DNA of 64,000 bases from Parcubacteria bacterium OLB19 (GCA_001567365.1 JZEL01000010.1:15030-79029); one strand, 5' to 3'. Shown: positions 11,253-64,000, counted from the stretch's first letter. Notes: a model not told the origin generated them from the sequence alone. Made by a program: numbers and translations.

Positions 11253-11267
11253 TGATTACTTCTTATT

Positions 11268-12907: not shown

Positions 12908-13029
12908 GATAAAGGCTTATTTTAGGGTTACGGGATGGCTATAAAATAGACCTACATCGTATATATACATAGCAAACACCACACCAATGGAAGCTAAGCC
13001 AATGGCTGCCAAAACTATAGATGCATTAT

Positions 13030-13338: not shown

Positions 13339-13347
13339 GTTATTTTT

Positions 13348-50100: not shown

Positions 50101-52374
50101 AATACTTAAAGTAGAAGTACCTCTAGCCAATGTTCCGTAACTAACAACCAATGAACCTTCTGTAGCAACAGATTTATTAGGAGTCCATGTCGCTCCACCA
50201 CTTGTTTCACCAAAAGTAAGGTTATAGAAATTAAGTGATGAAGTAGACGTTTGTAGAGTTAAGCTAGAAGTGGTAGCTGTAAATATAATAGTTGAGGCTC
50301 CAACTGTAAAAGTACCATCTTGTCTCCAATTACCAGAAACACGAAGCGTATTGGTTGCTGGTGTAAAAGTACCATAGTTTTCAAAGTTTATAACAACACC
50401 GTTTGTATTTGGCTGATATGTGGTGCCAGATAAAATTCTAAACTTAGCATCTGTACAAGCACTCTCAGCACACAAAGTCAAAACATTACTACCATCAACA
50501 CTAAAGAATAAATCTTCACCATTACCGTTATCGTAATAATTCAAATCTGAGTTTGTAAGAGTTGGTGCATCACCAGAACCTAAAGTTAGATTTCGCTTAG
50601 CTAATTGCATAGCAGAAATGTTTCCGTTTCCGTCATATTTAGTTATCGCCACAGACTCATCCGTATCTGAAGCTCCAGTGATAAACACGGTAATAATATC
50701 GTCCTCAAACATGGTTACATTTGGTATAGACCAACTTCCGTCACCACCAATAGATGCTGTTTTTCCGGTTTGAATAACACCATTTACAGCAATAGCTACT
50801 GTACCGCTATTGATAGTTGTACTGGCATCATATTCGTAAGCCGTACCAGACACAGTAATACCCTCAGACCAAGCTACTGACCAATCTTCAAGCGTTGGGC
50901 AATCACCAGCTACACAGTTAAATTGTGCATCTAAAGCCAAGGTGTTGTATACAGTTTTGTCGAGTTCTGATAGATCAATCGGACTGGTTGTAAAACCTGA
51001 ACTATTACCTGCCAAAGCACTGTCTGGCACTAAGGCATATTCAGAAGTAGAAGCTAGATAGTAGAGTCGATATTCAACATAGCTAGTTCCAGAAGTGGTA
51101 TCGTTCCAAGTCACAGCTTCCCAGCGTGGTCCAGAGCCATCATCGAAATCTATTGGTGTTGAACGAATTGAGCCTGAGATAAAATCTGGATATATGCGGG
51201 CCACCATATCTAAAGAACCATCAAATGGAGTTCCGGTTATCGATGGTGAAGAACTGATAGCTTGACGAGTCGACCAACTACTTCCATCCCAATTACTTAC
51301 ATCATAACGGTCGTTTACATCATCAAAGAAAGCAGTGTGTATTTTACCATCACCAGCTCTCACCGTAATAACTCGCCAAGAGTCTAAAATTGTGTCCAAT
51401 GTTAATTCACCGCCAAAAGTAGTAGTTGCAGCAGTTTGATAACGACCATTAGTACCATCAGAATACGTAGCTATAGTATAGCCATCGCGACCACTAGAAG
51501 TCTCGAATTCACAATCAACTGCATGACCAGCCTTACCATTACCAATTTGTTCTATTTCACTGTAAGCTGTCCAACTACTACCACCCCATTTTGCAACACC
51601 AATGTTTATATCATTATCAATGTAACAAAGTATAACCTCATCGGTTCCAACATCTCTTTTAAGGGTAGCCCATTCAATATGGTCACCAATCGCATAAGTC
51701 GAAGTTGACCAGGTAGCACCATTCCATGTTGCATACAGCAAAGTAGTAGCTAAGTTATTACTTAAAGCGACAATCGCTTGATTTCCAGATTCTTCATAAA
51801 CAGCTGCCGCTCCTGCATTAGCATCTTCATTCATATTACTTAGAGCCATAGCATTACCCCAAGCATTACCACTCCAAACCATGAGTTCATAATCTATAGC
51901 ACTGGTATTAGTATGCTTAAATACAGCCACAATTTCATCCGTGGTAGGATCGGATGCCAATTCCACATAAACACAATTGTTAGTATTGGCCAATGTGATT
52001 GATGATGTCGCAGACCATGAAGTACCATTCCAAATACTATAAACAGCATCATTCCCACTACAAGAAACAGCTAACAAATCACCCGAACTCATCTCGTAAG
52101 CTACATCAAAACCTCTTTGCAAAGTGTTTGGAATATTGTTATTTAATTCATTTACACTACCCCACGAGTCAGTTTCGGTGTTATAAATTTGCACGTTCAT
52201 ATCTGCATCAGTACCAACTGTAGCCAAGGCGTACTCAGGACGAGTAGGCGCAGCTTCTAGTTCCATCCAACGAATTTGAGCATCAACACTTTCAGCAGAG
52301 GCAGCTGTACTCCAACTAGTTCCATTCCATTTTCGATAGCGTGGTGCTTGATTTGTACCTTCACCATAAGCCAT
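41131..52374 (-). CDS. Giant Thr/Ser/Gly/Asn-rich surface protein (3747 aa) with no signal peptide of its own. It has an N-terminal propeller-like module, about three ~800-aa beta-helix-like super-repeats and a conserved C-terminal domain. Probably the downstream half of one ORF that is interrupted at 52374.
   Basis: It starts MAYGEGTNQAPRYRKWNGTSWS with no hydrophobic N-terminus. Repeated LTxxGxxTxxG beta-helix-like units are present. The blocks ...YSQDHAGVDGDLNIYG, ...YSQDHADVNGSLYIWG and ...YSQDHANVNGNLYVYG lie ~2.3-2.4 kb apart. The C-terminus is YWGIAVPFG...TGLNTFTAVGI. Confidence 0.7.
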   Translation of the reverse strand: MAYGEGTNQAPRYRKWNGTSWSTAASAESVDAQIRWMELEAAPTRPEYALATVGTDADMNVQIYNTETDSWGSVNELNNNIPNTLQRGFDVAYEMSSGDLLAVSCSGNDAVYSIWNGTSWSATSSITLANTNNCVYVELASDPTTDEIVAVFKHTNTSAIDYELMVWSGNAWGNAMALSNMNEDANAGAAAVYEESGNQAIVALSNNLATTLLYATWNGATWSTSTYAIGDHIEWATLKRDVGTDEVILCYIDNDINIGVAKWGGSSWTAYSEIEQIGNGKAGHAVDCEFETSSGRDGYTIATYSDGTNGRYQTAATTTFGGELTLDTILDSWRVITVRAGDGKIHTAFFDDVNDRYDVSNWDGSSWSTRQAISSSPSITGTPFDGSLDMVARIYPDFISGSIRSTPIDFDDGSGPRWEAVTWNDTTSGTSYVEYRLYYLASTSEYALVPDSALAGNSSGFTTSPIDLSELDKTVYNTLALDAQFNCVAGDCPTLEDWSVAWSEGITVSGTAYEYDASTTINSGTVAIAVNGVIQTGKTASIGGDGSWSIPNVTMFEDDIITVFITGASDTDESVAITKYDGNGNISAMQLAKRNLTLGSGDAPTLTNSDLNYYDNGNGEDLFFSVDGSNVLTLCAESACTDAKFRILSGTTYQPNTNGVVINFENYGTFTPATNTLRVSGNWRQDGTFTVGASTIIFTATTSSLTLQTSTSSLNFYNLTFGETSGGATWTPNKSVATEGSLVVSYGTLARGTSTLSIGGNLQLGSSGYTSGLATTTFNGSGSYTWSDAKATSSSSNVGYVVVDGTTKTITLGGNVAAQSVTIGADDTLNASGSGYNINVYGSWTNNNSFIPQTGTVTFVGTSSAAINRGSSAFNNLTFAGTGGTWSFTTATLALNGNLTIATGTVTLPTGTTTIAGSFLNTGGTFAHNNGEVRMTSTSAGRSVLQNGTAFLNAFYDLVFSGSGSWSYADTNATTSRTLRIQSGTVTLPSGQLTVAGDMNVTGSGAFSHNNGEVVLLIQNANEVRTNSSSFNNLRVYGESSTSTRTLSDTNVTVLGNLNLLGNGTTTFPSGILYIGGSLTNSANFNANNGTVRFNSTAGSETINAGNSPFVSLDFNSATGDFTITENATATGAVTLASVQQFTLGSGKTLSVSGSFTHTATGTNTTWTGSTLRLLNGGTITLNAKTHAGDSYGTLEAASSTLVKMWNSSADNYVTSGATGAIYSQDHAGVDGDLNIYGNYARTTGTEYWSVATDFDGVALTGANRQVDVKVASSSSISLTGASLSMIGTSTASSTISAISGTYTLTTTNSTLNNQYFTISGTDGYGLNLTSSTTLTTFSDGYLNVAPGLTGMTVDATTIDTNPSGQFYRIGFATTSSGTASNVTLSGTPSSYIWFRDGVGGIYGEAYDANDTDPGSVRFDDSSFIVTVSGTVYSDAGLTPMGAPVCDGSTANVRIVVDGGTYASSTSCNAGTGAYSFSNVAYIGDPRVVVYLDTNGGEKGSVVTKTLTGDVTDMDIYANRVILRHEDVDDLAIVDMSMYDHDDDTDISFTATLGSPNTLSTEANTELYVFASTTFTPNGNLTLGGNGNSNSYEGTLALATSSSFVAQGTESHTLSGRLVVGGNATFTTASSTFTFNATTTGKSITSVATTTFNNLVFSGTGGGWNIGANLTVHGDMQVASGTVTGTGNIVMTNGSISGNGVLSMGSGTVLLNKTNTLGGTSAWTFNNLVLGNGSIVGTTTPVSTATTSILGTLTISNAHFLDAGSSVWDLAGSGTVFTETGTLLEDTSTIRFSGAGANVPSTNYYNLILNAGAGSPTYTGTGSGILVLNDLTIGGSANSTFNVNTNDPTLEIRGDVLITSNGTLEASNSSNLTVLGDWTNGGIFTNNSGTVRFTGTGNTNINAGNSSFGTVLINGTGDFNVTNNATATTWRLQNHDDFTLSSGQTLAVGGQFENGLGGAKTTWTGSTLYLYGNSTYLINSSTTSDSYANLNVGAGTQIRMWSSDAAAYNVNSTGSLYSQDHADVNGSLYIWGQLLRTSGSDYWSYATDFDGTSLSGSERVANVYLASGASATWAGASLSVVGGSGATTTIQNQGSGTFGLTIGTSASTTWSRVQVRDVNSNGIVFSGTPTVNDFSYTDHLVAINSATAVTVGGTVIDANQAKNFTHNKFEAGGGVTGAINVTATGTSVSSWRFTNHIGNIAGEGFDSDPDGDPGYVVWDDSAALITIAGNVYSDEGSTVSGACDGATSNIRLVVAGLTMYDTTCNAGTGAYSISNIAFSPADTLTLYINGETEKAANVSVSPVSSIANMHLYENRVIVRHENTDPLTIDNMAVWDSSDDADIPFTAVSGSPDTLTLPANTKLLVWTGKTFEPNGNVTLSGGGAGGAQDGTLEVQSSGRFRAKTTETHSVGGSMIFGNSAELVSASSTFTLTTTGAGRTIDVNENSFHNLTLSGSGSWNITDTTLSVNGSYSQSSGSATLPTATTTIGGAFNVTGGSFTVNGSPIVFTSTGAGNTVRFNGSNVANLYFNGSGSFNMTDTNATATGQVMINSGTVTLPTGSLSIGSNFINTGGAITHNTSDLILTATSTATLHASSSDLYGVKFVGNGTFTISDVNLSLLESLTISTGTVIMATGTTSIGGSLLASSGVFTHSSGTVLLNSTTTGRTINVGNNAFYNLQIGAPAGGYTFESATTTNNFTIANVSSLTVQSGANITVGGVFTNSVGGANTTWTGSTLRLNYGSSFSVNGRTTTGDAYGTLIVGDNTDVRMWYSSASSTTVSSSGSLYSQDHANVNGNLYVYGDFSISTTTEYWNYATDFDGTSLFGSERQVNVYMATSATTTVNSGVLQILGGSGNVTNIQGQDNGNYTIKVLGGELNANQYAFYDLDINGLQLANISSITNLSDGYFDLAVDTGALITLSSTTLNANPSMIFDNVGFHATTGISGYNVSLVGETSNAWRFTNNYGNIGGEGFDIDGLDACGSVRFDDSSCLITEQTHYRWRNDDGGEGGVASEWYADTSFDLRKRIRVENNDNQTYASTSVKVTITYDSDMKSDFSDLRFTDDDGVTAIPFWVEKYTASTEADVWVLIPSLPANGQAVLQMYYGSTTASSISDGEQVFTAFDDFEDNDIAEYSGDTTLFNTVGTPVYGGSYSLKPTNTSGKTTDGIFRFDQTISQGEIIRYMQYVNTSGTSDEPCTLFGVQSPGTNNQNYAVCLEQFGTDRISLSRNVANNDTSGTVLATSTVTYSTGWYEVVVDWQTNDDIDVYLYNSSGSLVTSVSANDTNYTSGGYGYAFWYQNGTWDSFTSRPRVDTAPTIYVGSEQTTGGATWVAVQDTAGSADVGENVRLRVSIENSGLDITSQQFRLEYAAKDSAPSCGSVDAVNYATVPNQASCGTSPVCMATSSQIADDDATSDHLTDVSGEFVTGKMVESPSSETTATDVLQNYYTELEYVIKTTINADDSYCFRVTNAGTELDFYAEVAELSPRFIPVFGAVSLNGGQDISLTPGTTTEVYATGTVTDMNGYSDLAHATTTIYRSGVGPSCTPDNNNCYVLSTTNGACSFTDCSGNTCTLSCLADVYFHADATDADTYEGQEWLAYLEAEDQTDGYEFASAPGVELLTIRALEVDSLINYGSLLVESDTGSYNPTTTVTNLGNSPIDIDVEATDLSDGATSYIPADQQKLATSTFTYSACVSCYTLSSSTPTAIDLNLSKPTTVAPPVETEVYWGIAVPFGTSNSTHTGLNTFTAVGI
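43100..49200 (-). repeat. About three in-frame tandem super-repeats of ~2.3-2.4 kb each inside the 3747-aa CDS. Boundaries are approximate.
   Basis: Anchor motif YSQDHA is found at about 48700, 46310 and 44015 on the + coordinate scale. The flanking ~800-aa blocks align residue by residue (NNGTVRFNSTAGSETINAGNSPF... / NNSGTVRFTGTGNTNINAGNSSF... / SSGTVLLNSTTTGRTINVGNNAF...). Confidence 0.6.
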
Positions 52375-55300
52375 CAGACTTCGGTTATTGTGGTGGTAAT
52401 TTGTGCTCCACCGGCGGAAGTTTCGATATCTGTTAAGGTGTCAGTATCAAATTGTTCGCCAGTAGTTTGGTGCCATGTAGATACAGTAATTGCAGTATCG
52501 ACAGTAAAACTTCTTTGATCTGAGTATTTAGACCAAATATTGTCCCCACCAGGATCTCTAGCTCGCACTCGCCACCAGTAAGTATTTCCGTTAGTCAAAG
52601 CTGCTTGGGCTGTATAACTAACAGTGTTGCCAGAAATAAATGGTGAAATATCAGTACTAGAAGCAGTGTTTGCAAAACCAGCATTCGTACCAGATGTAAA
52701 TGTAGAAGATGACGTAAAATCATAGGTGCTAGATATTTGTAATTGGTACTGAATATCGTCACTTTCAGGGTCTGTAGTGTAAAAAGTAAAGGTTGGTGTC
52801 GTAGTAGCCACTTTAGCATTATCAAAATATTGAACTAAAGTTGGAACTTCAATCGTTTCATCCCAAGTTACAGTCCAATCCAGAAGTCTTGGTAAAGTGC
52901 TATTACCACTAAATACTGCCCTTATTCTAATTTCATTATAAGTCTCTGGATTAACTGTGCTTAGAGACACTGGCGATGATGTAAAACCGGTACTATTCCC
53001 AGACAAAGCACTATCTGGAATCAAAGAGTAATTTTCGCCTGACACACGATATTCAACATAATATCTAATACTACCGGAAGTTACATTATGAGTGAACAAT
53101 AAAGCCCCCCAAGCATTTCCAACCGTACCATCATCAAAATCAATCACAGATGAAGTAGTGGTACCGGCAGTAAAGCTTGAATCTATACCAACATCATTTG
53201 TACTAGTTGAATTGATTGTATCTAGAAGAGTATCAGTATTAAATTGATCACCTGTTGTTTGATACCAAGTAGAAATCAGAGTCCCAGTATCAATAGTAAA
53301 ACTCTCTGGTGTAGACCAATCTCCATACTCACCTGACCCTGATATATCTTGACCGCGTACTCGCCACCAATAAGTATTACCGTTAGTTAGACTAGTAGTT
53401 GGAGTATACTTAATTCTTTGTCCACTCGTAAACTCACTCTTCATATCGGGATCTAGAGTGTTTTCAAATAGAGTGAAGTTGGTCACCGAATCATTATCAA
53501 TCACAGTACTACCAAAATTAACATCAGTAGAAATTTGAATTTGGTAAGCAACATCATCACCTAATTCATCAATGGACGCGAACTCAAACCATGGCGTAGT
53601 TGAAGCTAGTTTTTCATTATCAAATGGAGCATAGAGATCCGGAGCTAAAGGTGGTGCATTCGTAATAAGTCTTGGGTAATTAGTATAAGTATTAAAAACA
53701 GAACCATCTGAATAAACCATTCGGAAACAGTAATTTGTACTACTGGTGGCATTATTATTTTGAATAGCAAAATCCCATTCAGTATCATCATCTACTGGCA
53801 AGGAATTTTGATTTTCTTCAGTTGGATTTATTTCCTCATAAGTTTCAAAAGTATCAGAATCAGTCAAAAGTGTTGACGTTAACGACAAACCATCACCTAT
53901 ATATTCCTCAGCCGAAACAGCGTAGAAACCGGTTGGATTTGATTGGTTATTAAACTCAGTAGCTATCCAACCGTTACTGCGACGCACATTAGAGAAGCGC
54001 AATTCATCAAGTCGACCGACAAATCCTTCAGTTGTTTCACCACCGAAGTTTTGCCAATCTGAAGTACCACTCTGAGCCACATCACTAAACAATCTTGTGG
54101 TTGTACCATTTATATGTATATCAACTTTATTACTACTATCACGCGTTAAAACTACATGATTCCATTGTGAGTGTGCTGGATAATCAACACTTGAATCAGA
54201 TGAAGAAATTACTCGAGCAAATAATTTTCCTGATGGTGAGCTCCAAGGTCCTAATTTTTCGTTAGCACCACTAGGTCCTGCAATAGCATATCCAGTAGAA
54301 GAAGAATACCACCACATCGATGCAGTAAATTCACCAGTATACGCCAGTGCAGTTTGGAACACACCACCGTCGTTACCATCAAGATCAATAGCATTACCAA
54401 TTTTTCCAACTATAACATCTCCAGACGTCATACCAGCACGAGCTACCGCATGATTAGCATTACTGGTACTGTCTCTAAATTGTGGACTAGATCCAGCTGG
54501 GTTATTACCCATTTGATAACGCAAAGAATAACCGTTCGTCCACACATTTCTCGAACCATAAGTAGCACTAACTGAATACCCTGACGCACTTGGATTGTCG
54601 TAATAAATATAATATTCCTTGTCTGTTGTTGATGATAAAGTAGCCTTAAAATGTAACTCTCCGGTTTCGCTACCAGTATTGATGAAAACTAATTCATAAG
54701 GTACCTCAGTCAAACCGTCATCTTGCGTGACACGAATATCATCGCCATCGCTTTGTACATTTTGGAAGAAAGTGGATGGTAAATCAGCTAAGTCAACATA
54801 AACTGGAAAATTAGTCACATCATCCTCCACCACATCGCTTTCTACTGTTATCTTAATGCGTTTACCCCATCCACTAGCAAGCCAATCACTACCGGCAATA
54901 GAATTTTCATGACCACGCCACACAGCTGTAGTAGATGCCGGATCACCAACATCATGCCATGTTAGCGATGGACTACAGTTTGAACCCTCTGCATATTGTA
55001 ATTTGAAGGCTTCGGAAAAAGCTGGCAATGTAACATTAGCTCCTTTAAGTGACATTCTCAGTCTAATCGCAGATCCTGAATTGATTGCATAAGATGAACT
55101 AATAGCCGTATTTTCAGCTATATCAATCACTCCAGATGGCCAAGGATCAGTTGGGGTTAGGAAACTTCCATTTACATACCAACGATAATTACTCTGTGTA
55201 ATTTTTGGTTCACGCATCCATGACAATGTCCAGTCATCCAAACTAGCAGATTGACTACCAACCGTAGTAATGGTTGCTTCAAGACAGATTTGATTGTAAG

Positions 55301-58300
55301 TACTGGTTGACAATCCGGTCAAATCAATCGGCGTGTCACTCACATCAAAACCAGTGCTGTTGCCAGACAACACACCATCAGGCACTAAAGTATCACAAGC
55401 TGTAGTACTTGAATATAAAACACTAACCTTTACATCTGTTCCTAAAGGTTCTGTAGTTGAAAAACTCACATCTCCCCAAGTTGGTTGATTTGGTACCCAA
55501 TCAAAATCAATTACTGGTGTTGTTACTACACCTTCAGAATACTGAAAACGTTTAGCCACCATGTCAAACATCTCATATGGCGCAGCTATAACTGAGGAAG
55601 GACTGGTTTCAATTGTATCTTTAGTTGACCAACTGGTACCATTCCAATACGCGGATTCAAGATCATCTGAAGTATCATCGAGAGTGACAGCCACCACTAC
55701 ACCATCATCTGCCCTTTCAGTCTGTACCCAGAATGAGTCTGATATTGTACTAACAGTAGCCTCAGTACTCCAACTGGTTGTAGTAGTACCGTGGCGATAT
55801 CTTGTGTCAGTAGTGTCACTATATATAACCATATGATAGTCAGTACGACCAACTACATCTTCGTAGGTACATTCAACTGGTCTACCAGTTGTGCCATTAG
55901 CAGTAGTTTCAACCTCTTGAAAAGTATTCCAAGCACCACCGTCCCATTCCAAAATTCCAATATCAGTACTTGCATCTACGTAGCATAGAAGTATTTTATC
56001 TGTATCTTTATCAGCCGTCATACGTCCAAACAGAAAATCATTACCTATAGCTTGTGTAGTATTTGGACTTAATTCTGTACCATCCCAAACAGTGTAAGCA
56101 ATACTATTAGCAGTACCATTACCTACCGCTATAACTGCCTGGTCACCAGAGCTTTCAAACATCACTGACATAGCCTCAACTCCAGCTGATGCTGGCGAAC
56201 CGATCACTCGACTATCCACCCAAGCTGTACCGTCCCAAACAAAGGTTTCATATTGAGTACCTGTGTCACGCACAATCAAAATAATTTCATCTGAAGCTGG
56301 GTTTGATGCAATCTCAAGCATATTACATGCGTTTGCCGAAGCAACGGTGATGCTAGTTGTTGCAGACCAACTAGTTCCATTCCAAATACTATAAACAGCA
56401 TCATTTCCATCACAAGATACAGCCATTGCATCTCCAGATAAACTTTCGTATGTTATTGCGATACCTCTATATGTGTTAGTAGTTAGTGCTGGCGATAAAA
56501 GCTTTTGATTACCCCAAGAACTACTAGAGGCACTAAAAATCTGTGCGTAAGCGTCATTACTTTGATCTAGAGTTATAAGTGCATATTCATCACGCGTAAC
56601 TCCTGAGGCTGTGCGCACCCAGTTTATGGTATTACTTACCGCAACAGCACTCCCTTCCACTCCCCAAGCTGAACCATTCCAAAGCCTGTATCTTGGTGAT
56701 GTGTTTGAACCCTCACCATAAACAATCAACATCTCTGTTGCCTCGGTTGCATCAACCTGCACCTTATCTGATGCATTCGATACTGTACCAACCAACGTAT
56801 CACCATCAAACTGATCACTGTATGTCTGATACCAGTTTGGTGCTTGAGCGGACATGTCGACAGTTAGACTTTGTGTTGTAGACCATTCTCCATACTCATT
56901 TGAACCACCAGTATCACGAGCCCGCACCCTCCAATAGTAAGTTTGTAAGTCTGTTAGAGCATCTGCTGATTGTAATTGATATCTAATTTTATTACCTTCA
57001 ACAAATGGTGACGTATCTGTACTTGAGGCTGTATTTGAAAATCCAGAGTGTGTACCTGAAACACGAGTAGTTGAGGCAGTAAAGCTAGAAGTGGTAGAAA
57101 TTGAGAATTGATATTGTATATCTGAAGTTCCATCCGGATCTGAGGCGGAAAAGTCAAAATACGGTGTAGTTGAAGCAAATCTAATATTATTGAAAGGCGC
57201 ATCATAAAGAGTTGGTGCCACAGGGCGCTCATTGAGTTGTGTTTTTTGCCACACCATCAGTAAAGCAGGCGTAGTATCATCCAATGTTCCAGCACCAGCC
57301 TCTTGTATTGAAGTAACGCTAATAATATCATTTGCACTTAGATTCTCTAACAGATACACTAACGAACCTGATGAATTAGTATGTCCGCTTTGGTTTCTTA
57401 TATAATGTGACTTTACTTGTGCTCCCGAAACCTCAGATCCGTTGACCAAGATTTTAACTGTAGTATTAGAACGATTAACAGTACCATTCAGCGCATCATT
57501 ATAAACAACAAAATAACTTCCTGCTTCATCTACCGTAATTTGATGACTATTGCTAGAGGTGGAATGTGTGAAAACTGAAGTATCATAAACTCTCTGCGTT
57601 GCCCACTGTACTGAACTCGCCGCTGCAGGATTCCAGTTCGTACCACTAACCAAACGCACGCCCTCAAGTACAATCATGTCACTTGTGGACAATTTCTCAA
57701 CAAAAATTGAACCTACAAAGCCGGTAGAAACAGTACTAGTACCAGCCGCCGCTTCACGTTCTGTCGTTATAGTCAAAACCTGATTAGTAGTAGTAGCCAC
57801 CACAATACCAGACCAATGTATTGAACTGTCACCATCATCTTCATTTGCAGTTGATTGAGTATAACCTTGAGCAAAAATACCACCGTTCACCTGAACCCCG
57901 TCTAACCTCACACGTCCAAGCACACTTTGTTGCGCTGTACCACCAGTTAAAGGAACATTAACTGTCACCATATAAGTACCAGCGTTAGCAATAATTATAT
58001 TTTCAGGATTTACTGAATCAGAATGAGTAAAACCAGAATCTTGACGAGTTTCAGTCCATTGCAAAGAATAAGCTGTGGTTTGATTTAAATTAGTAGAGTT
58101 TGTTGTTCTGGTGGTTGTAGCAGAAAAAACATCTCTGGTTGAAGCAATATATTCCATATACAAACCAGCTTTCCCTGTTACATTCACAACATCACCAGCA
58201 TCGATAGTGGTTAAACCTACAGTGTAAACTTCCACATAATCATTTGGTGAAATATCCTTAAGTAGAAAGGTTGTATGAGTAGAGGATTCACTATGACTAC

Positions 58301-61025
58301 CAAAATTGCGAATATAACCACTACGGCCAAGACCATCAGGAACCGCAGTGCCATTTACTCTCACCTCAACACCTATACGAGTACGACTACTATTACCGTC
58401 AGTTCTCTGTTGTGGTACAGTTACAGCCAAGAGATAATCACCACTTTGTTTTAATGTGACCTTATGTGTATCTGTTGTAGTTGAATGAGTGAAATAGTAG
58501 GAATCAACAGTTGAAGTACTCCACTGGAGAGGACTTGGTGAAGCATTAAGATTTGTACCACCTACAGTTCTAGTACCAGTAAACCAACCAATTCCTGTTA
58601 ATGCGTCGGAAGCTATTTGCCATTGCCTTAACTCTCTAAAACCATCCATATTAAGTGGACCCAAAAGATACATATACGGACTAATATCTGGTGCGTCAAA
58701 CTTATATCTAAATTGTACTGACTTACCTTCTTCAAGATTAACATTTCGCCAAACAAGCTCGGTATAATCTGGTAAAGTGATAATTTCGGCACCACCAGTA
58801 TCCTCTATCACAAATCCTCTTGGTAATCTCTCTACCACATCACCATCATAGATGCGGTTTGCTTTTACGTTAATTGTAACTTCATATGGCGAAGGGGGAT
58901 AGATACGTGTTGGGGCGGTTCTCTCAATATCGTAAGGAATATACTCTCGCACCTCAAAAGTGTCACGGATATTATGAACCACACTTCCATCAGCATTTAA
59001 ATGCTGTAGCTGTATTGTATAAAGGCCAATCTTATCTGTTTTATCAAAATCAGCTAAATAATCTGGTACATCAGTGACGTTATTCTTACCACAATGTCCA
59101 GACTGACTTACTGGTGTCTCATATATATTATTTTCCGGATCAACAATTTTTAGCTGTAAATTAGCATCACAAATAGTGTCTCCCTTGTCCGTCAAAGCTG
59201 CCAAATTAAGTTTTACTTTTTCGTTTGGTAGATACATTGTCTTGGTAGTATTTACTGCTAAGACACCCCAATAGAATTCAAAACTATCAGTGTATAGTGT
59301 TTCATTTTCATTCACCACCACCTCGATTTTGTATTTACCTGGTAATAGTTTTTGTGGTTGCTCTAAGAACTTTATTGTCCAGGTTTTATCATCCTGATAA
59401 ATAAAATCAACTGGTACAGTTATGGCGACTCCATTTTGATCAATCACACTAACAGCATCAATTTTATATACATTCTCACTGAAGATTGAGTTGAAGATAC
59501 GTTTAAAGAAGTTTTGTTGCGGTGAATAATTTAAAGTAAATGTTGGTAGTGAGCTTAACGTAAAATCTAATTCCGTATCATTGAGTTCGTGGAATTTTGG
59601 CTCTAACAAACTTCTCTCGTAAGTAATTTGATTAGTCAAATCATTTGGATCTGGTTTTTCATAGAATGAGGATGATTCTACCTCTAACCACAAACTTTCA
59701 ACATAAGCACGTTCTAGATTATCAATATTACCTTGATATGAAACTCTTACCTGCAACTTAGCAATATCACCCTGATTAGCTGGATCTTCCAAAGAAACAA
59801 GGAAATAACCTCCATTAATACTGTTGGATACTTCGTCCTCTATATCAATAACAGTGGCTGTTTGCCAACCCTTACCATCGCCATAATCATATTCCACGAC
59901 AAACCGTTGTAACTCTGACTCATTAAGATTCTTAGTTTGACCAGCCAATGAAAGACGAAGCTGCGCTGAGGTAATAAATTTACCTGATTCAAATTCTGGC
60001 ATCATAAAACCAGAGAAGACCATATCGTAGGTTTTACAATTTGGCGAAGCATTACATTCTTCTTTTACAGTTGGTGGTGGTACATAGTTATCATTTTCCG
60101 TATCTGTAGTCACCTCCTCAGTAGCATCCTCAGTCTCTGCCACAGTTTCAACAATGTCACTTTCGGTATTATCAACTTGCAAATCTTGATTCTCTTCACT
60201 AGCCACATCACTAACATCAACTGTTTCTGTTTCTGATTGATTCACATCACTCGAAGATTCAACTTCAATTGCTTCATCCGTAGTAGAGACATCATTTTGA
60301 TCAACATTAGATTCAACAGAATTTTCCTCCTCTACAACATCATTGCTTTCTGTATTACTTTCAGTTGTGGTCACATAAGTAGTAATTGATTCTTGCAACA
60401 ATGGATAAGTTTTTTGAGATTGTGTAAACACACCCCAATTCACGTCATTTTTAAAATTAAAAGATGTTTCATTTTGAGGAGCAACTTCAGTGTTATCCGC
60501 TTCTGGCTCACTACTACTATCTGTAGCTTCAACCTCTTCAACTGTTGGGTCAGAATTTTCACTTTCCACTTCAACCTCCTCTACAGGTGACTGTGGAGAT
60601 AAATCTGTAGGAGTAGACTCTGAGTTTACAGACTCATCAACCGTTTCCGTTGAAGTGGTGTCGTTCAATCCATCCACAGGAGACATATCACCTTCAGTTT
60701 CGATTACTGATGAGGTATCAGTAACACTATCAATCACAGGCAACGGGGCTGGTGCAACAACAACAGAATCAATAAAGGCAGAGTTCTCTGGTGAAAAATT
60801 CTGGAAAAGTGATTCTGAAGAAATATCCTGACCTAGAGTCTTTTCTGGTTGTGACCAAGTATTCGAAGTTACAGAATCAGGAATAATTACTAGTTGTTCG
60901 GAAACAATTTCAGTTCTATCTACCGTAGCATACACAAAAATACCCACAAGCAACACAAAAATTGCCAGCATCCATAAAGAAATTCTACGGAAAAAAGCCT
61001 TAAAAATCATTACATAACAACCCAC
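52374..61025 (-). CDS. Giant membrane-anchored surface protein (2883 aa): N-terminal TM, an acidic stalk, Ig-like domains, three ~115-aa FTHS repeats, three FN3-like YYWRVRARD modules, a propeller-like module and a LamG/ConA-like domain. Probably the upstream half of one ORF continuing into 41131..52374.
   Basis: N-terminal TM is ISLWMLAIFVLLVGIFVYA. A D/E/S/T/V-rich region of ~300 aa follows. FN3-like modules end in YYWRVRARDTGGSNEYGEWST / YWWRVRGQDISGSGEYGDWST / YWWRVRARDPGGDNIWSKYS. LamG-like stretch: NAIDLDGNDGGVFQ...FTASMWWY...GRLDELRFSNVRRSNGW. The stop TGA overlaps the next ATG (ATGA at 52372..52376). Confidence 0.7.
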   Translation of the reverse strand: MGCYVMIFKAFFRRISLWMLAIFVLLVGIFVYATVDRTEIVSEQLVIIPDSVTSNTWSQPEKTLGQDISSESLFQNFSPENSAFIDSVVVAPAPLPVIDSVTDTSSVIETEGDMSPVDGLNDTTSTETVDESVNSESTPTDLSPQSPVEEVEVESENSDPTVEEVEATDSSSEPEADNTEVAPQNETSFNFKNDVNWGVFTQSQKTYPLLQESITTYVTTTESNTESNDVVEEENSVESNVDQNDVSTTDEAIEVESSSDVNQSETETVDVSDVASEENQDLQVDNTESDIVETVAETEDATEEVTTDTENDNYVPPPTVKEECNASPNCKTYDMVFSGFMMPEFESGKFITSAQLRLSLAGQTKNLNESELQRFVVEYDYGDGKGWQTATVIDIEDEVSNSINGGYFLVSLEDPANQGDIAKLQVRVSYQGNIDNLERAYVESLWLEVESSSFYEKPDPNDLTNQITYERSLLEPKFHELNDTELDFTLSSLPTFTLNYSPQQNFFKRIFNSIFSENVYKIDAVSVIDQNGVAITVPVDFIYQDDKTWTIKFLEQPQKLLPGKYKIEVVVNENETLYTDSFEFYWGVLAVNTTKTMYLPNEKVKLNLAALTDKGDTICDANLQLKIVDPENNIYETPVSQSGHCGKNNVTDVPDYLADFDKTDKIGLYTIQLQHLNADGSVVHNIRDTFEVREYIPYDIERTAPTRIYPPSPYEVTINVKANRIYDGDVVERLPRGFVIEDTGGAEIITLPDYTELVWRNVNLEEGKSVQFRYKFDAPDISPYMYLLGPLNMDGFRELRQWQIASDALTGIGWFTGTRTVGGTNLNASPSPLQWSTSTVDSYYFTHSTTTDTHKVTLKQSGDYLLAVTVPQQRTDGNSSRTRIGVEVRVNGTAVPDGLGRSGYIRNFGSHSESSTHTTFLLKDISPNDYVEVYTVGLTTIDAGDVVNVTGKAGLYMEYIASTRDVFSATTTRTTNSTNLNQTTAYSLQWTETRQDSGFTHSDSVNPENIIIANAGTYMVTVNVPLTGGTAQQSVLGRVRLDGVQVNGGIFAQGYTQSTANEDDGDSSIHWSGIVVATTTNQVLTITTEREAAAGTSTVSTGFVGSIFVEKLSTSDMIVLEGVRLVSGTNWNPAAASSVQWATQRVYDTSVFTHSTSSNSHQITVDEAGSYFVVYNDALNGTVNRSNTTVKILVNGSEVSGAQVKSHYIRNQSGHTNSSGSLVYLLENLSANDIISVTSIQEAGAGTLDDTTPALLMVWQKTQLNERPVAPTLYDAPFNNIRFASTTPYFDFSASDPDGTSDIQYQFSISTTSSFTASTTRVSGTHSGFSNTASSTDTSPFVEGNKIRYQLQSADALTDLQTYYWRVRARDTGGSNEYGEWSTTQSLTVDMSAQAPNWYQTYSDQFDGDTLVGTVSNASDKVQVDATEATEMLIVYGEGSNTSPRYRLWNGSAWGVEGSAVAVSNTINWVRTASGVTRDEYALITLDQSNDAYAQIFSASSSSWGNQKLLSPALTTNTYRGIAITYESLSGDAMAVSCDGNDAVYSIWNGTSWSATTSITVASANACNMLEIASNPASDEIILIVRDTGTQYETFVWDGTAWVDSRVIGSPASAGVEAMSVMFESSGDQAVIAVGNGTANSIAYTVWDGTELSPNTTQAIGNDFLFGRMTADKDTDKILLCYVDASTDIGILEWDGGAWNTFQEVETTANGTTGRPVECTYEDVVGRTDYHMVIYSDTTDTRYRHGTTTTSWSTEATVSTISDSFWVQTERADDGVVVAVTLDDTSDDLESAYWNGTSWSTKDTIETSPSSVIAAPYEMFDMVAKRFQYSEGVVTTPVIDFDWVPNQPTWGDVSFSTTEPLGTDVKVSVLYSSTTACDTLVPDGVLSGNSTGFDVSDTPIDLTGLSTSTYNQICLEATITTVGSQSASLDDWTLSWMREPKITQSNYRWYVNGSFLTPTDPWPSGVIDIAENTAISSSYAINSGSAIRLRMSLKGANVTLPAFSEAFKLQYAEGSNCSPSLTWHDVGDPASTTAVWRGHENSIAGSDWLASGWGKRIKITVESDVVEDDVTNFPVYVDLADLPSTFFQNVQSDGDDIRVTQDDGLTEVPYELVFINTGSETGELHFKATLSSTTDKEYYIYYDNPSASGYSVSATYGSRNVWTNGYSLRYQMGNNPAGSSPQFRDSTSNANHAVARAGMTSGDVIVGKIGNAIDLDGNDGGVFQTALAYTGEFTASMWWYSSSTGYAIAGPSGANEKLGPWSSPSGKLFARVISSSDSSVDYPAHSQWNHVVLTRDSSNKVDIHINGTTTRLFSDVAQSGTSDWQNFGGETTEGFVGRLDELRFSNVRRSNGWIATEFNNQSNPTGFYAVSAEEYIGDGLSLTSTLLTDSDTFETYEEINPTEENQNSLPVDDDTEWDFAIQNNNATSSTNYCFRMVYSDGSVFNTYTNYPRLITNAPPLAPDLYAPFDNEKLASTTPWFEFASIDELGDDVAYQIQISTDVNFGSTVIDNDSVTNFTLFENTLDPDMKSEFTSGQRIKYTPTTSLTNGNTYWWRVRGQDISGSGEYGDWSTPESFTIDTGTLISTWYQTTGDQFNTDTLLDTINSTSTNDVGIDSSFTAGTTTSSVIDFDDGTVGNAWGALLFTHNVTSGSIRYYVEYRVSGENYSLIPDSALSGNSTGFTSSPVSLSTVNPETYNEIRIRAVFSGNSTLPRLLDWTVTWDETIEVPTLVQYFDNAKVATTTPTFTFYTTDPESDDIQYQLQISSTYDFTSSSTFTSGTNAGFANTASSTDISPFISGNTVSYTAQAALTNGNTYWWRVRARDPGGDNIWSKYSDQRSFTVDTAITVSTWHQTTGEQFDTDTLTDIETSAGGAQITTTITEV

Positions 61026-61062
61026 CTACCATTTTCAGGTAGAAAGGGTTCAAGAATATTAT

Positions 61063-61097
61063 AACCCGCTATCTTACGATAGGCGGGTTATTTTTCC
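61063..61097 (-). terminator. Intergenic hairpin with adjacent T-tract; candidate (bidirectional) terminator between 61111..62649 and the giant gene
   Basis: AACCCGCTATC-ttac-GATAGGCGGGTT followed by ATTTTTCC on the + strand. On the minus strand the stem is followed by AUAAUAUUCUU. Confidence 0.35.
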
Positions 61098-61110
61098 TCA
61101 TTGTGTGGAT

Positions 61111-62649
61111 TTACTTAAGGATAGCTTTTACGTCATTTATTTCCTTCTCAATGAGTGTTTCGGACACTTCGAGAGCTTGATTTAATCCCTCTACAGCATC
61201 CTTCTCATTTTTAGATAAGCGCTTCCGTTTCGTAATCATGTTGATTTGATCATATATTTCATCACGGAGAGCAGAGAAGATTTTTTCCATCTGATCCTGA
61301 ACCTCTCTAGTTTCCCTTCGTAATTTATCTTCCTTAATCTTGATTTGCTTTCGCTCATACCAAATGTAGATAAATTGAAGAATTATGATTGTAATCAGGA
61401 AGAAGATAAATATGTTGGTAGCGGTAAGGAAACTCCAAAATGATTTTTCTTCTTCAATTTCAACTGGTTTTACCCAACCGGCAGTAATCAGTACAGCCTT
61501 GGTACTTTCTCTAATATTACCAGCCTTATCGTATGCAACCACTTTAACTGTATAAGTACCATCTTCTAATTCCTTTAAAAGATATCCTAATTTAGCCTCA
61601 TCTGGAGTAACTCTTATCGGTTCTTTATCAGCAATTGTAAGCTCGTAATAATCTATGCCCGATGTTTTATCATTTGCCTCAAACACAATCATTGGGAATG
61701 AGGATGGAGTTGTTCCGGTTCTCACCACCACTTCAAATTGTTCTGGTGGAGTAGTATCAATTTGTATTTTTCTATTTAACACCGCTCCCCAACCAACTTG
61801 ATTTTTAAACTTAATGCTTAGGTACTGAATACCATCACCTATCAAATCTTTTGTCACTCTAAATTCATCTATTGGTGGTTCAAGTATAGCTTTTTTATTC
61901 AATTCAGGTTGATTTTCACTTGAAGTAGCTATTTCAATTGCTACTGCATTCACATCAAATGGTAAAGTCCAATTAAATATTCCTTCGGTGGTATTGTACC
62001 AGACTTCAGAATCAAGGAAGACCTGTGAACCGACTTCTGGCGCTCTAGGTGGATCACCAAACACAATCGCCTCTTCGGTTTCTGGTTTTTTAGGTTTTTC
62101 TTCCTCCACCTCTGCTACCGGTGTTGGTGTCGGTGTCACAGTTGCCTCACCGATAGTAAACGAAGCGGGTGCAGAAGATTGGTAAACATCTGTCCCTTGA
62201 CCATCGTTAAGTAAAACTGAGGCGTTTGAAAAAGAAACTGATGCACTACCTACTTTTGTCGCTCGCCAAGTTATGGAAAAAAGGTTTGAAGCGGAAGAAA
62301 ACGGTGTTTGACTACCACCACCAAAAGTTACAGTACCAGCTGAATTTGAAAAAGTAGGTTCTACTGTCCAAAGTGTAAACGCAGAACCGGTTTTACTAAT
62401 ACTGACCACGGTAATAACAGAAGGATCAAACTTTAGAGTAGCTTCAACTGCATTGATACTCTTTCCATCTGGCTGTACCCTAACATTAGTAGTGAAAGTC
62501 TGACCAGAACTATAAGAACCACTACCGGGATTCAACTGTAAAGTTGCCGCCTCTGCCACTGACGAAACAAAAAAAATAAAAAGTAGCGAGCACAGTAAAA
62601 AAGTGATTTTTGTTATTTTTATAATATTTGTTAATCGACTAATGAACAT
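61111..62649 (-). CDS. Membrane-anchored cohesin-like scaffold protein (paralog of 28553..30277): signal, cohesin-like domain, Pro/Thr linker, Ig-like domains, TM and a cytoplasmic coiled-coil
   Basis: ATLQLNPGSGSYSSGQTFTTNVRVQPDGKSINAVEATLKFDPSVITVVSI...FSNSAGTVTFGGG...LLNDGQGTDV. Linker is TPTPTPVAEVEEEKPKKPE. TM is FLTATNIFIFFLITIIILQFIYIW. The C-terminus is K/E-rich coiled-coil. Confidence 0.5.
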   Translation of the reverse strand: MFISRLTNIIKITKITFLLCSLLFIFFVSSVAEAATLQLNPGSGSYSSGQTFTTNVRVQPDGKSINAVEATLKFDPSVITVVSISKTGSAFTLWTVEPTFSNSAGTVTFGGGSQTPFSSASNLFSITWRATKVGSASVSFSNASVLLNDGQGTDVYQSSAPASFTIGEATVTPTPTPVAEVEEEKPKKPETEEAIVFGDPPRAPEVGSQVFLDSEVWYNTTEGIFNWTLPFDVNAVAIEIATSSENQPELNKKAILEPPIDEFRVTKDLIGDGIQYLSIKFKNQVGWGAVLNRKIQIDTTPPEQFEVVVRTGTTPSSFPMIVFEANDKTSGIDYYELTIADKEPIRVTPDEAKLGYLLKELEDGTYTVKVVAYDKAGNIRESTKAVLITAGWVKPVEIEEEKSFWSFLTATNIFIFFLITIIILQFIYIWYERKQIKIKEDKLRRETREVQDQMEKIFSALRDEIYDQINMITKRKRLSKNEKDAVEGLNQALEVSETLIEKEINDVKAILK

Positions 62650-62672
62650 AAGGAACTGTAGAAAAATTAATC

Positions 62673-63137
62673 TTACTTTGTAACCGACCTTCGATCCTGC
62701 TTTATTCTTAATCTAACCCTCTCTTTTTCTGAAGCCTTAAGCAAAGGGAGAATCAAGATAAGAACTCCGTTTTTTATTTTAGCTTCCGCTTTTTCTATAT
62801 CAACACTTTCAGGCAAGATAATTCGTCTATAGAAATCTCCCCAAACACACTCCTGAGCAAAGAATGCACCTTGTTCCTTCTTTTTTGAGAAAACTAAATA
62901 TTCCGGTCTTATTCTCCTTCCTTCAATCAAAACTATATCAGCATCGCCTTCAATTGAAACATTAACGTCATTCATATCAGCTCCTGCTGATTGAGCATAA
63001 ATCACAATCATTTTTTCGGTTTGGTAAACATCTACATCAAGCTGAGCAACCTTATCCGCTGCTGTCTCTTCTGAATCTGATTGCAATGCTTGACCCGATC
63101 TTACACCACGATTTTTTAATCTTTGCAGGAATGACAT
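62673..63137 (-). CDS. Hsp20/alpha-crystallin family small heat-shock protein
   Basis: ACD hallmarks: LDVDVYQTEKMIVIYAQSAG...FYRRIILPESVDIEKAEAKIKNGVLILILP. Confidence 0.75.
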   Translation of the reverse strand: MSFLQRLKNRGVRSGQALQSDSEETAADKVAQLDVDVYQTEKMIVIYAQSAGADMNDVNVSIEGDADIVLIEGRRIRPEYLVFSKKKEQGAFFAQECVWGDFYRRIILPESVDIEKAEAKIKNGVLILILPLLKASEKERVRLRIKQDRRSVTK

Positions 63138-63188
63138 ACTATTAATATTATATATATTGTATTTATGATTTTAGTGACATACCCACAG

Positions 63189-64000
63189 CTAGCCAGTCCA
63201 GTTAAAGAGCAAGATTGAGAAGTCAGTTAGGTTAACCTTCGTGTCGACATTAATATCAGCAGATGGATCTGATGTTCCTCCATCAGTGTTCCACCAAAAA
63301 AGTAGAATTGAGAAGTCCGTTAGATTAACCTTCCCATCACGATTCAAATCTGCTGTTCGTGGCTTCACTGCCTTTTGTCCAACTCCGTATAAAAGATAAT
63401 TTGAGAAGTTGGTAAAAATAGTTCCTGACGTTTGTTTAGATTTAGCTCTGATTTTGTAAGTTCCAACCGAAAATCCATTAGTAGCGATTGTAGTACTCCA
63501 AAAACCGTCTGAGTTAGCACTAGCTGTGAAAGCTTTAAGAGTAACCGGGGAGTTTTCTTTCATATTTTCTAAGTTTACTTCAGAATTAGGTAAAGCATAA
63601 CCACTAACTGACAATTCTTGTCCAGGATCTACCGGATCGGGGGTTACAACTATTGTTGGCGCAATATTAATATTCGTCAAAGTCGAGGTTCTTGCCCCTG
63701 CCACAGTAAAGGAAGTACTGAATGTGGATGATTTTATTTTTTTTGAGTCAATTGCATAGACACCAAAAGTATATGCACCTCTAGCAATTTCATCAATAGT
63801 AATTGAGTATAATCCGTTTCTGTCAGCTCTTCCCTTCACACTTTCCTTACCATCAACTAATGAAACAATTTCACTATTAGGGTATGCGTAGCCACTAATA
63901 ACAACACGTCCATCGCCACTACGATAGGGAGCATCATCAGATTCAAATCCTCCACCCGCTGTACTACCACTATCTTCTCCATCTCCTCCTCCTCCTCCTC
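63189..64000 (-). CDS. Dockerin-bearing secreted protein (paralog of 32877..33998). The N-terminus lies beyond the window: the frame is open to the edge through a poly-Gly linker.
   Basis: C-terminus DLNRDGKVNLTDFSILLFWW...DINVDTKVNLTDFSILLFNWTG is a double dockerin. The upstream frame continues ...GGGGGDGEDSGSTAGGGFESDDAPYRSGDGRVVISGYAYPNSEIV... with no stop up to position 64000. The listed M at 63839 is actually a GTG codon. Confidence 0.55.
   Translation of the reverse strand, partial: GGGGGDGEDSGSTAGGGFESDDAPYRSGDGRVVISGYAYPNSEIVSLVDGKESVKGRADRNGLYSITIDEIARGAYTFGVYAIDSKKIKSSTFSTSFTVAGARTSTLTNINIAPTIVVTPDPVDPGQELSVSGYALPNSEVNLENMKENSPVTLKAFTASANSDGFWSTTIATNGFSVGTYKIRAKSKQTSGTIFTNFSNYLLYGVGQKAVKPRTADLNRDGKVNLTDFSILLFWWNTDGGTSDPSADINVDTKVNLTDFSILLFNWTG

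Follow-up and report, generated by a model that had tools for sequence, protein, structure and literature searches.

Genes of the cohesin-Hsp20-dockerin triplet

At the edge of a 64,000-nt stretch of DNA from Parcubacteria bacterium OLB19 (the window, i.e. the whole stretch analyzed), three consecutive genes encode a cohesin-bearing membrane anchor, a small heat-shock protein (sHSP) of the Hsp20/alpha-crystallin family and a dockerin-bearing protein, here called the adaptor. The window matches OLB19, with the 512-aa anchor 100% identical to an OLB19 protein, and the host is an ultra-small bacterium belonging to the Candidate Phyla Radiation (CPR), within Paceibacteria. The minus strand carries all genes of the window, including the three open reading frames (ORFs) of the triplet listed below (AF2, AlphaFold2; FnIII, fibronectin type III; TM, transmembrane). 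The adaptor gene runs past the window edge, and its full-length product, as well as the genes further upstream, was obtained from L001, a near-identical contig that reaches beyond that edge.

61111..62649, minus strand: single-cohesin type-I membrane anchor, 512 aa (Pfam, AF2, Foldseek, hydropathy)
Anchor signal peptide, minus strand: cleavage at about AEA/A (signal-peptide helix in the AF2 model)
Anchor residues 35-167, minus strand: cohesin module, beta-sandwich (Pfam, AF2, Foldseek)
Anchor residues 171-195, minus strand: TP-rich (Thr/Pro) linker, disordered (AF2)
Anchor residues ~200-390, minus strand: two FnIII-like domains (AF2, Foldseek)
Anchor residues ~410-432, minus strand: TM helix (hydropathy scan, AF2)
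Anchor residues 433-512, minus strand: cytoplasmic helical hairpin (AF2)
62673..63137, minus strand: Hsp20/alpha-crystallin small heat-shock protein, 154 aa (Pfam, motifs, PDB relatives)
63189..64000, minus strand, running past the window edge: C-terminal 270 codons of the dockerin adaptor (Pfam; full length from L001)

The product of 61111..62649 is a single-cohesin type-I membrane anchor. It matched Pfam Cohesin (PF00963; E 9.1e-7, 29.6 bits against a cutoff of 24.1, residues 42-150) and, more weakly, Ig and fn3 families. In its AF2 model (pLDDT 83.6 overall and about 90 over residues 35-167, from an alignment of 46 sequences) the N-terminal module adopted the nine-stranded jelly-roll beta-sandwich of cohesins: Foldseek returned the type-I cohesins 6kgf, 2vn5, 1g1k and 4dh2 (target TM-score 0.70-0.75), and the module superposed on solved cohesins at an rmsd of 2.3-2.9 Å over ~150 columns. 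The top Foldseek match was 2w1n, the non-cellulosomal cohesin-FnIII module of Clostridium perfringens GH84C, where the cohesin is directly followed by FnIII as in the anchor. The TM helix continues as a long cytoplasmic helix to residue 473, with a second helix at 480-511, and this helical tail is the best-conserved part of the anchor (mean column conservation 0.88-0.94 versus 0.78 for the cohesin module). Thus the cohesin-like region, TM segment and coiled-coil tail described by an initial annotation of the window were all recovered, while its term "cohesin-like scaffold" had to be dropped: a role as cellulosomal scaffoldin was rejected because the protein has one cohesin, no carbohydrate-binding module (CBM) and a TM-anchored type-I layout.

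The middle gene, 62673..63137, encodes an Hsp20 as had been called (Pfam HSP20, PF00011; E 6.9e-11, 42.6 bits against a cutoff of 20.8). The protein has neither signal peptide nor TM segment and is therefore cytoplasmic. In an alignment of 32 sequences its NGVL motif was invariant and its C-terminus, V-R-L-R-I, conformed to a conserved V141-x-L143-x-[VI] in which V141 and L143 were invariant; its nearest solved relatives are ordinary sHSPs (5j7n, 1gme and 1shs). With bacterial sHSPs (IbpA/B-type holdases; Xanthomonas HspA 3gla, wheat Hsp16.9 1gme, M. jannaschii Hsp16.5 1shs) it has in common the alpha-crystallin domain, the G-V-L motif, the C-terminal V/I-x-L/I-x-V/I anchoring motif and a short N-terminal arm. 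Unlike them, it stays paired with a surface-anchor gene as a two-gene unit even between deeply diverged relatives, has an invariant stretch of eight residues at its start and has no known heat-shock operator upstream. That stretch, MSFLQRLK (residues 1-8; 63114-63137, minus strand), was the same in all 32 sequences, whose overall identity went as low as 64%; it is unusual for sHSP N-termini and may be a binding motif or reflect a constraint on a leaderless mRNA.

The adaptor (637 aa in L001) consists of a signal peptide or anchor, a pilin-like N-domain with a linker strand, an FnIII-like domain, a Gly-rich linker of ~80 aa, two Big_6 domains and a two-segment dockerin. The part within the window bears out the earlier call of a poly-Gly, Ig-like, double-dockerin protein: a poly-Gly run sits at the window edge, Big_6 was matched, and Dockerin_1 (PF00404; E 3.5e-10, 40.4 bits against a cutoff of 22.9) was matched in two stretches. 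The dockerin comprises two 22-residue segments (residues 585-606 and 616-637) and is the best-conserved region of its protein (0.91 among 46 orthologs). At the calcium positions 1/3/5/9/12, segment 1 has D, N, D, N and D in 46, 45, 46, 46 and 46 of the 46 orthologs, and segment 2 has D, N, D, N or S, and D in 46, 45, 46, 31 + 14, and 46 of them. Its two Ca-loop/helix segments with near-identical helices presumably resemble dual-binding-mode type-I dockerins.

The AF2 model of the adaptor (pLDDT 71) showed an N-terminal beta-sandwich at residues 35-205, then a linker, another beta domain, the Gly-rich linker and the two Big_6 domains. Foldseek with the whole model returned only generic strings of Ig domains from S-layer and adhesin proteins and was uninformative. 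By hhalign, residues 26-215 corresponded to the N-terminal domain and linker strand of the pilin-like family encoded in the same loci (98.3%, E 1.6e-14). This homology stops where the C-terminal acceptor domain would begin, for which the adaptor has no counterpart. The linker (about residues 206-234) was modeled with low confidence yet has a conservation of 0.80.

Conservation of gene order in close and distant relatives

For synteny analysis, one genome per species was scanned with the cohesin-anchor alignment, which yielded 80 loci at 55-81% identity; their ORFs were scored against the window proteins. Hsp20 was found directly upstream of the anchor in 75/75 loci with enough sequence (median gap 14 nt), the dockerin protein upstream in 59/60, and a homolog of the giant gene that follows the triplet in the window downstream of the anchor in 69/69 (median gap 104 nt). 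Hsp20 was the best-conserved gene of the cluster (median identity across species 79%, with the anchor at 63% and the dockerin protein at 57%). The full conserved order was p360 - p357 - p135 - variable segment - dockerin - Hsp20 - anchor - giant; p360, p357, p135 and an ABC exporter lie upstream of the triplet in L001, outside the window, and nearly every locus has pilin-like and chaperone-like genes along with the triplet. Thus, in the synteny check that the initial annotation had proposed, the three genes were not scattered, and its remark that an Hsp20 amid surface-assembly genes is unusual was borne out with a position that proved strongly conserved.

More distant relatives were collected by an exhaustive search of representatives with Hsp20 (491 at E<=1e-10 and 5,427 at E<=1e-3), an earlier homolog search having been saturated by orthologs of >=80% identity. 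Genomic contexts were examined for eight Hsp20 representatives of 36-52% identity, six of them with usable downstream DNA. All eight were in this context and none elsewhere: a full-length anchor homolog began 0-37 nt after Hsp20 in 6/6, and the dockerin protein was directly upstream in 5/6. The same order in 80 species and six distant contexts is far beyond chance.

The giant gene did not share this depth. Among deeper relatives, the gene after the anchor encoded a much shorter protein in some loci; in L097 the triplet was kept and followed by unrelated genes, and in L093 nothing followed the anchor. In L093 and L094 the surface island is absent, and the housekeeping genes that border it in the window (S24/IMS at one end; AI-2E, PGA_cap, FKBP and TGT at the opposite end) have nothing but p135-like - Hsp20 - anchor between them. 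The L093 anchor is 33% identical to that of the window from end to end (E 5e-88) and has the same cytoplasmic tail. Since L093 keeps only that core, the surface island appears to have been gained or lost as a block around p135-Hsp20-anchor; and because distant relatives keep the Hsp20-anchor pair without the giant, association with the giant is clade-specific and the pair is the ancient core. Therefore, the proposal that the triplet is conserved beside the giant gene stands for close relatives and fails for deeper ones, and the tightest and oldest linkage, as read from gene order, is that of Hsp20 with the cohesin anchor, not that of the triplet with the giant.

A further rearrangement was seen at one locus. 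In L006 (Kaiserbacteria; L006:3538-9408) a gene for a 1,956-aa FG-GAP repeat protein lies between dockerin and Hsp20, and Hsp20 still adjoins the anchor. The island missing from L093 between IMS (DinB-like) and AI-2E/PGA_cap/FKBP/TGT measures ~50 kb (L093:1-12733 compared with window 9984-14385 and L001:83-3087).

Probable transcription signals around the Hsp20-anchor pair

Conserved putative signals were located on both sides of the Hsp20-anchor pair:

63179..63187, minus strand: upstream element TGTGGGTAT (consensus TGTGGGTAA(C)), conserved across loci and lying 42 nt ahead of the Hsp20 ATG
63147..63152, minus strand: TATAAT, -10-like box, 26 nt past the element and 9 nt before the Hsp20 ATG
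61104..61111, minus strand: AATCCACA motif over the anchor stop codon, columns 3, 4, 7 and 8 invariant in 62 sequences
61061..61091, minus strand: GC-rich stem-loop ATAACCCGCCTATC-GTAA-GATAGCGGGTTAT, 3' of the anchor gene, with covariation in 62 sequences
61058-61063, minus strand: TATAAT box, overlapped by the 3' arm of the stem-loop

Across loci, the spacer from the upstream element to TATAAT had a median of 27 nt, and TATAAT preceded the Hsp20 ATG by a median of 8 nt. The Hsp20 start would thus be near-leaderless, and the geometry of TGTGGGTAA(C) resembles that of an activator site centered near -41. Exact copies of TGTGGGTAA numbered 61 in the 80 loci (about 10 expected by chance), 49 of the 61 at the fixed spot upstream of Hsp20, and the element was present in the distant locus L093 too. 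A regulon-wide role was rejected: the window held 19 matches versus 18.6 expected, and the few exact copies elsewhere in the loci were intragenic, so that the element is specific to the region upstream of Hsp20. The heat-shock operators CIRCE and HAIR were likewise rejected, as 79 regions upstream of Hsp20 contained no HAIR and one CIRCE-like sequence with 4 mismatches.

Downstream of the anchor, the two arms of the stem-loop were paired in 92.3% of cells, versus 66.5% in shuffles and 26-46% when partners were slid, and compensatory double changes numbered 151 versus 47 in shuffles. A search of the hairpin region for an Rfam family returned none, only a rimP leader at E 0.7 that was taken as chance. 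At the same place after the anchor, canonical intrinsic terminators occur in L095 and L097 and a strong hairpin in L091. The stem-loop is probably a terminator or attenuator of the Hsp20-anchor unit and part of the giant-gene promoter. No terminator was found between the three triplet genes in the window. With a promoter-like element before Hsp20, no internal terminator and a hairpin or terminator after the anchor, Hsp20 and the anchor would form a discrete, co-transcribed two-gene unit, a reading well supported by these conserved signals.

Relation to Pam pili, WxL clusters and cohesin-dockerin pairs

The Pam pilus of the CPR bacterium Candidatus Mycosynbacter amalyticus is specified by a CPR-specific, Sec-dependent locus whose Ig-like pilins each combine an N-domain with a linker donor strand and, at the C-terminus, a truncated-Ig acceptor domain; the locus also encodes TM-anchored, PapD/FimC-like chaperones (PamC/D) and PamR, a TM-anchored protein with two FnIII domains and an N-terminal strand, which is proposed to end and tether the filament (bioRxiv 10.64898/2026.03.03.709456). 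Pam was reported mainly in Saccharimonadia and Microgenomatia, and cohesin, dockerin, Hsp20 and Paceibacteria go unmentioned in that report (bioRxiv 10.64898/2026.03.03.709456).

The locus studied here has putative counterparts to several of these parts. Where Pam has Ig-like pilins, it has pilin-like proteins of sub-threshold similarity: 26 of the 39 members of the family matched the NCBIfam model CPR_Pam_pilin_C (NF058581) and no other model (best E 2.4e-7), over model positions 4-148 of 148, at scores below the 55-bit cutoff (21.1 and 24.4 bits in the matches shown). A 1857-aa protein of the window matched the same model, also below threshold. The profile of the pilin-like family found nothing significant among PDB sequences, in a copy apparently without Pam structures. 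As the Pam chaperones are TM-anchored, so the chaperone-like proteins of the window have C-terminal TM helices, and the anchor, like PamR, carries two FnIII-like domains and a TM helix. Unlike in PamR, the N-terminus of the anchor is a cohesin and not a strand, the strand-bearing part sitting on the dockerin adaptor; the tether would here consist of two proteins, a pilin-like adaptor with a dockerin and an anchor with a cohesin. Other differences from Pam are the sHSP gene fixed before the anchor and the conserved cytoplasmic tail of the latter.

The chaperone-like p357 family (window 16425..18185, 18079..19101 and 34003..34999) relates the locus to Firmicute WxL clusters. Its profile matched EfmWxLIP1 of Enterococcus faecium (PDB 9i25, chain 9i25_C) at E 1.7e-6, as expected of a WxL-interacting protein (WxLIP), and Pfam WxLIP_PGBD weakly. 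WxLIPs (DUF916-DUF3324-TM) are proposed to insert a beta-hairpin into their partner (PMC10599100; PDB 9i25/9i1y). The layout with a C-terminal TM helix is common to both families. Unlike WxL clusters as described, the locus has cohesin, dockerin and Hsp20, and its partners are Pam-like pilins; Pfam found no WxL domain in any window protein scanned.

The cohesin fold of the anchor is that of type-I cellulosomal cohesins (2vn5, 1g1k, 4dh2 and 6kgf). Unlike cellulosomes, the locus has no glycoside hydrolases, CBMs or multi-cohesin scaffoldins; unlike SLH- or sortase-anchored scaffoldins, it carries its cohesin on a TM-anchored protein with a cytoplasmic tail; and unlike known cohesin-dockerin pairs, its cargo is pilin-like and Ig-rich and its cohesin gene is coupled to an sHSP gene. 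The three genes would form the conserved core of a Paceibacteria surface-assembly locus akin to the Pam pilus of CPR bacteria and to the WxL systems of Firmicutes. Cohesin-dockerin pairs outside cellulosomes, the Pam pilus and WxL clusters have each been described separately; the literature searched did not show the three combined, together with a fixed sHSP gene, and contained no prior description of cohesin, dockerin or Hsp20 in CPR surface systems and no sHSP dedicated to a cohesin-bearing or pilus-anchoring membrane protein. We know of no described sHSP so dedicated.

A model for anchor, adaptor and Hsp20, and its alternatives

Anchor and adaptor would be a cognate cohesin-dockerin pair in a Pam/WxL-like surface-assembly locus. 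This assignment, made from sequence, is well supported because cohesin and dockerin genes are neighbors in 59/60 species and in 5/6 distant contexts and are duplicated together in the window. The model that we consider best, and hold with moderate confidence, has the dockerin adaptor plugging into the cohesin anchor, and Hsp20, co-transcribed with the anchor, serving as its dedicated partner.

In this model the anchor would be exported by Sec and held by its one C-terminal TM helix, presenting a single cohesin on a flexible stalk (the linker and two FnIII domains) and leaving the conserved helical hairpin in the cytoplasm. The predicted Ca2+-type dockerin of the secreted adaptor would plug into this cohesin and so keep the adaptor at the membrane. 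Should the adaptor also give its linker strand to the last pilin, it would at the same time tether the base of a donor-strand-exchange filament, and the job that PamR would do in one protein (strand, two FnIII domains and TM helix) would be split into two polypeptides via a cohesin-dockerin joint. That the adaptor terminates and tethers such a filament as a "split PamR" is plausible by domain logic: because its homology to the pilins ends before the acceptor domain, it could donate a strand but not accept one, and would therefore have what a filament-terminating subunit needs. The conserved, low-confidence linker fits a strand that orders only in the groove of its partner.

Hsp20 would be transcribed with the anchor, from its own promoter-like element to the hairpin or terminator after the anchor. 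It could act as a holdase that keeps the very stable beta-sandwich ectodomain of the anchor export-competent; bacteria of this kind are not known to have SecB. Alternatively, Hsp20 could bind the invariant cytoplasmic tail of the anchor. A dedicated role with the anchor, as pre-export holdase or as tail partner with a presumed contact between the two proteins, is favored because the Hsp20-anchor linkage is deep and tight.

A bolder version, which we advance only tentatively, combines a Pam-like filament fastened by the cohesin-dockerin joint with an sHSP that is a dedicated and obligatory assembly or regulatory factor acting on the anchor ectodomain before export or on the tail. If true, cohesin-dockerin binding would have a new use, the anchoring of an organelle, and Hsp20 would be the first sHSP with a dedicated client to be linked to a surface structure.

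Several lines of evidence weigh against the model: i) the dockerin module was modeled by AF2 at a pLDDT of about 45-55 and as strands, not helices (in a model without Ca2+ or partner); ii) reading of the anchor tail sequences revealed no recognizable conserved I-x-I motif; iii) the similarity of the pilin-like family to Pam pilins, as judged by profile matches, is remote only, and the likeness to PamR is architectural only; iv) L093 has no dockerin, pilin or giant genes nearby; v) the paralogous anchor of the window (28553..30277) has no adjoining Hsp20, and therefore Hsp20 is not needed in cis for every anchor; vi) the second dockerin protein of the window (32877..33998) is without a pilin-like N-domain, and thus dockerin cargo is not always pilin-like; vii) Hsp20, if it is the sole sHSP of these genomes, may simply be their general stress sHSP.

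The last point leads to the main rival of a dedicated role, which we regard as possible though rather unlikely: Hsp20 would be a general stress sHSP, its position reflecting inherited order or shared regulation (e.g., stress-linked surface remodeling) with no physical or client tie to the anchor, the dockerin protein or the giant protein. Hsp20 is indeed canonical in every sequence feature and its family grades continuously into ordinary sHSPs (from the 491 representatives to the 5,427), yet all eight sampled representatives of 36-52% identity were in the anchor context and none elsewhere. Its 79% conservation is as expected of a cytoplasmic housekeeping protein, but adjacency to the anchor was kept down to 36% Hsp20 identity amid rearrangement and loss (75/75 loci and 6/6 contexts). 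The paralogous anchor without Hsp20 and the promoter-like element of the Hsp20 gene itself also favor this rival, whereas the 0-37-nt gaps together with the terminator after the anchor point to an obligate bicistronic unit, and none of the 79 upstream regions held a CIRCE or HAIR operator.

A second rival leaves the cohesin-dockerin joint in place and removes the pilus. Anchor and dockerin protein would be a plain surface-display pair, the dockerin protein an adhesin or S-layer-like protein, and its N-terminal likeness to pilins a shared Ig-like module; we give this account limited credence. Non-cellulosomal display pairs of this kind are known, e.g., C. perfringens GH84C (2w1n), the top structural match of the anchor, and Foldseek of the whole dockerin-protein model returned S-layer and adhesin Ig-strings. 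However, the pilin homology of the adaptor ends exactly at the end of the linker strand, and the linker at 206-234, conserved at 0.80 in spite of its low confidence, fits a strand that becomes ordered in a partner groove. Similarly, the second dockerin protein has no pilin-like N-domain and L097 keeps the triplet with no giant downstream, but pilin-like and chaperone-like genes stand beside the triplet in nearly all loci.

Finally, the reading that giant adhesins are assembled or carried by a cellulosome-like scaffold, whose cohesin and dockerin genes lie on both sides of the giant genes for that purpose, is very improbable: the giant follows the anchor in 69/69 close relatives after a median 104-nt spacer and is flanked on both sides by cohesin and dockerin paralogs in the window, but only one cohesin and no CBM occur in the anchor, dockerin loop, cohesin and Pam acceptor domain are all absent from the giant, neither dockerin protein of the window has a catalytic domain in Pfam scans, and in deeper relatives the triplet is accompanied by a protein of 686-1,500 aa or by no such gene.

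With a cohesin anchor, a dockerin adaptor and a dedicated Hsp20, the model points to an as yet undescribed means by which these CPR cells may fasten filaments or proteins at their surface. CPR bacteria (Patescibacteria) may account for a large share of bacterial diversity and live attached to hosts, but hardly anything is known of how their surface structures are built and anchored; a pilus specific to CPR, Pam, was first reported only in 2026, in groups other than Paceibacteria. Furthermore, an sHSP-anchor pair conserved across deep divergence is unexpected, since sHSPs are regarded as generalist holdases. These ideas, among them a plug-and-socket of cohesin and dockerin between a pilin-like subunit and its membrane anchor, are testable with recombinant modules, without cultivation.

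The giant gene downstream of the anchor

Two ORFs follow the anchor in the window:

41131..61025, minus strand: giant secreted protein, ~6,630 aa, as two ORFs, 52374..61025 and 41131..52374 (one ORF in relatives)

The likely true start is the ATG at 61010, and the two ORFs encode 2883 and 3747 aa. An uninterrupted ORF was found in 52/55 relatives, with single ORFs of 7,004-7,750 aa. These align collinearly through the window junction with a change of frame only (relatives "...NEV-LMAYGEG...", the window one base short, a 1-nt deletion at ~52374-52377), and thus the "giant gene pair" of the initial annotation is one gene with a 1-nt frameshift, either genuine, with the gene a pseudogene or truly split, or introduced by the assembly. 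The giant contains internal repeats: residues 1434-1949 of the first ORF product (giantA) match residues 1-515 of the second (giantB) at 38% identity.

The protein after the anchor comprises 686 aa in L099 (L099:7977-10037), ~1,500 aa in L091 and L095 (L091:10159-14667; L095:4683-9173) and 6,600-7,750 aa in the window and close relatives, and the giant shares only its C-terminal ~300-420 aa with the 686-aa and 1,500-aa proteins. From these alignments, the giant is a clade-specific expansion of a 686-1,500-aa protein, and the series from 686 through ~1,500 to ~7,000 aa would show how the giant gene arose, which makes it useful for understanding giant-gene origin. Lacking a dockerin loop, a cohesin and a Pam C-terminal acceptor domain, the giant was rejected as dockerin cargo and as a Pam subunit. 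The functional association between the giant and the scaffold and dockerin genes proposed earlier accordingly found no physical tie to the cohesin.

The paralogous set at 27-34 kb and other surface genes of the window

The window holds further relatives of the triplet and its neighbors:

28553..30277, minus strand: cohesin-anchor paralog of 574 aa that has one Ig-like domain more (36% identity, E 6e-67; no adjoining Hsp20)
32877..33998, minus strand: paralogous dockerin protein, 373 aa (38% identity, E 6e-48)
31436..32584, minus strand: Pam-pilin-like p382, 382 aa, paralog of p360 (46% identity, E 1e-83)
30280..31315, minus strand: third, short cohesin-anchor paralog (signal peptide, cohesin-like, FnIII, TM), split into 181-aa and 112-aa ORFs
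27159..27833, minus strand: 224-aa protein that ends in one dockerin-like Ca loop, DIDGDGKVTLND, and also has a cohesin-like module (E 6e-8 to the anchor)

The paralogous anchor matched Pfam Cohesin (PF00963) at 31.8 bits, and the paralogous dockerin protein comprises a Cys-rich DUF4215, poly-Gly, Big_6 and a dockerin. The duplication of cohesin and dockerin genes noticed earlier is therefore real, and anchor and dockerin paralogs occur in the same order as in the triplet; what does not hold is the full mirror image at 27-34 kb, because no Hsp20 lies between the paralogous anchor and dockerin, where a pilin-like gene and the frameshifted anchor paralog are found instead, and the triplet as such is not duplicated.

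The frameshift that interrupts the third anchor paralog falls within a homopolymer, the A8 run near 30790-30799, and may be a sequencing error or slipped-strand phase variation. Three other genes, for glutamate dehydrogenase (14444-15710), an ABC ATPase (38202-39523) and a WxLIP-like protein (34003-34999), each appeared as two adjoining ORFs. Counting the giant and the third anchor as well, the 64 kb contain five or more split genes, which suggests assembly errors or gene decay in this metagenome-assembled genome.

The 1857-aa protein (19112..24685, minus strand) ends in a domain similar to the Pam-pilin acceptor (family hidden Markov model E 1e-22), and its gene is followed by two genes for WxLIP-like TM proteins (18079..19101 and 16425..18185, minus strand). 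By domain content, this protein and the WxLIP-like pair look like a tip adhesin with its chaperones, a putative second filament module.

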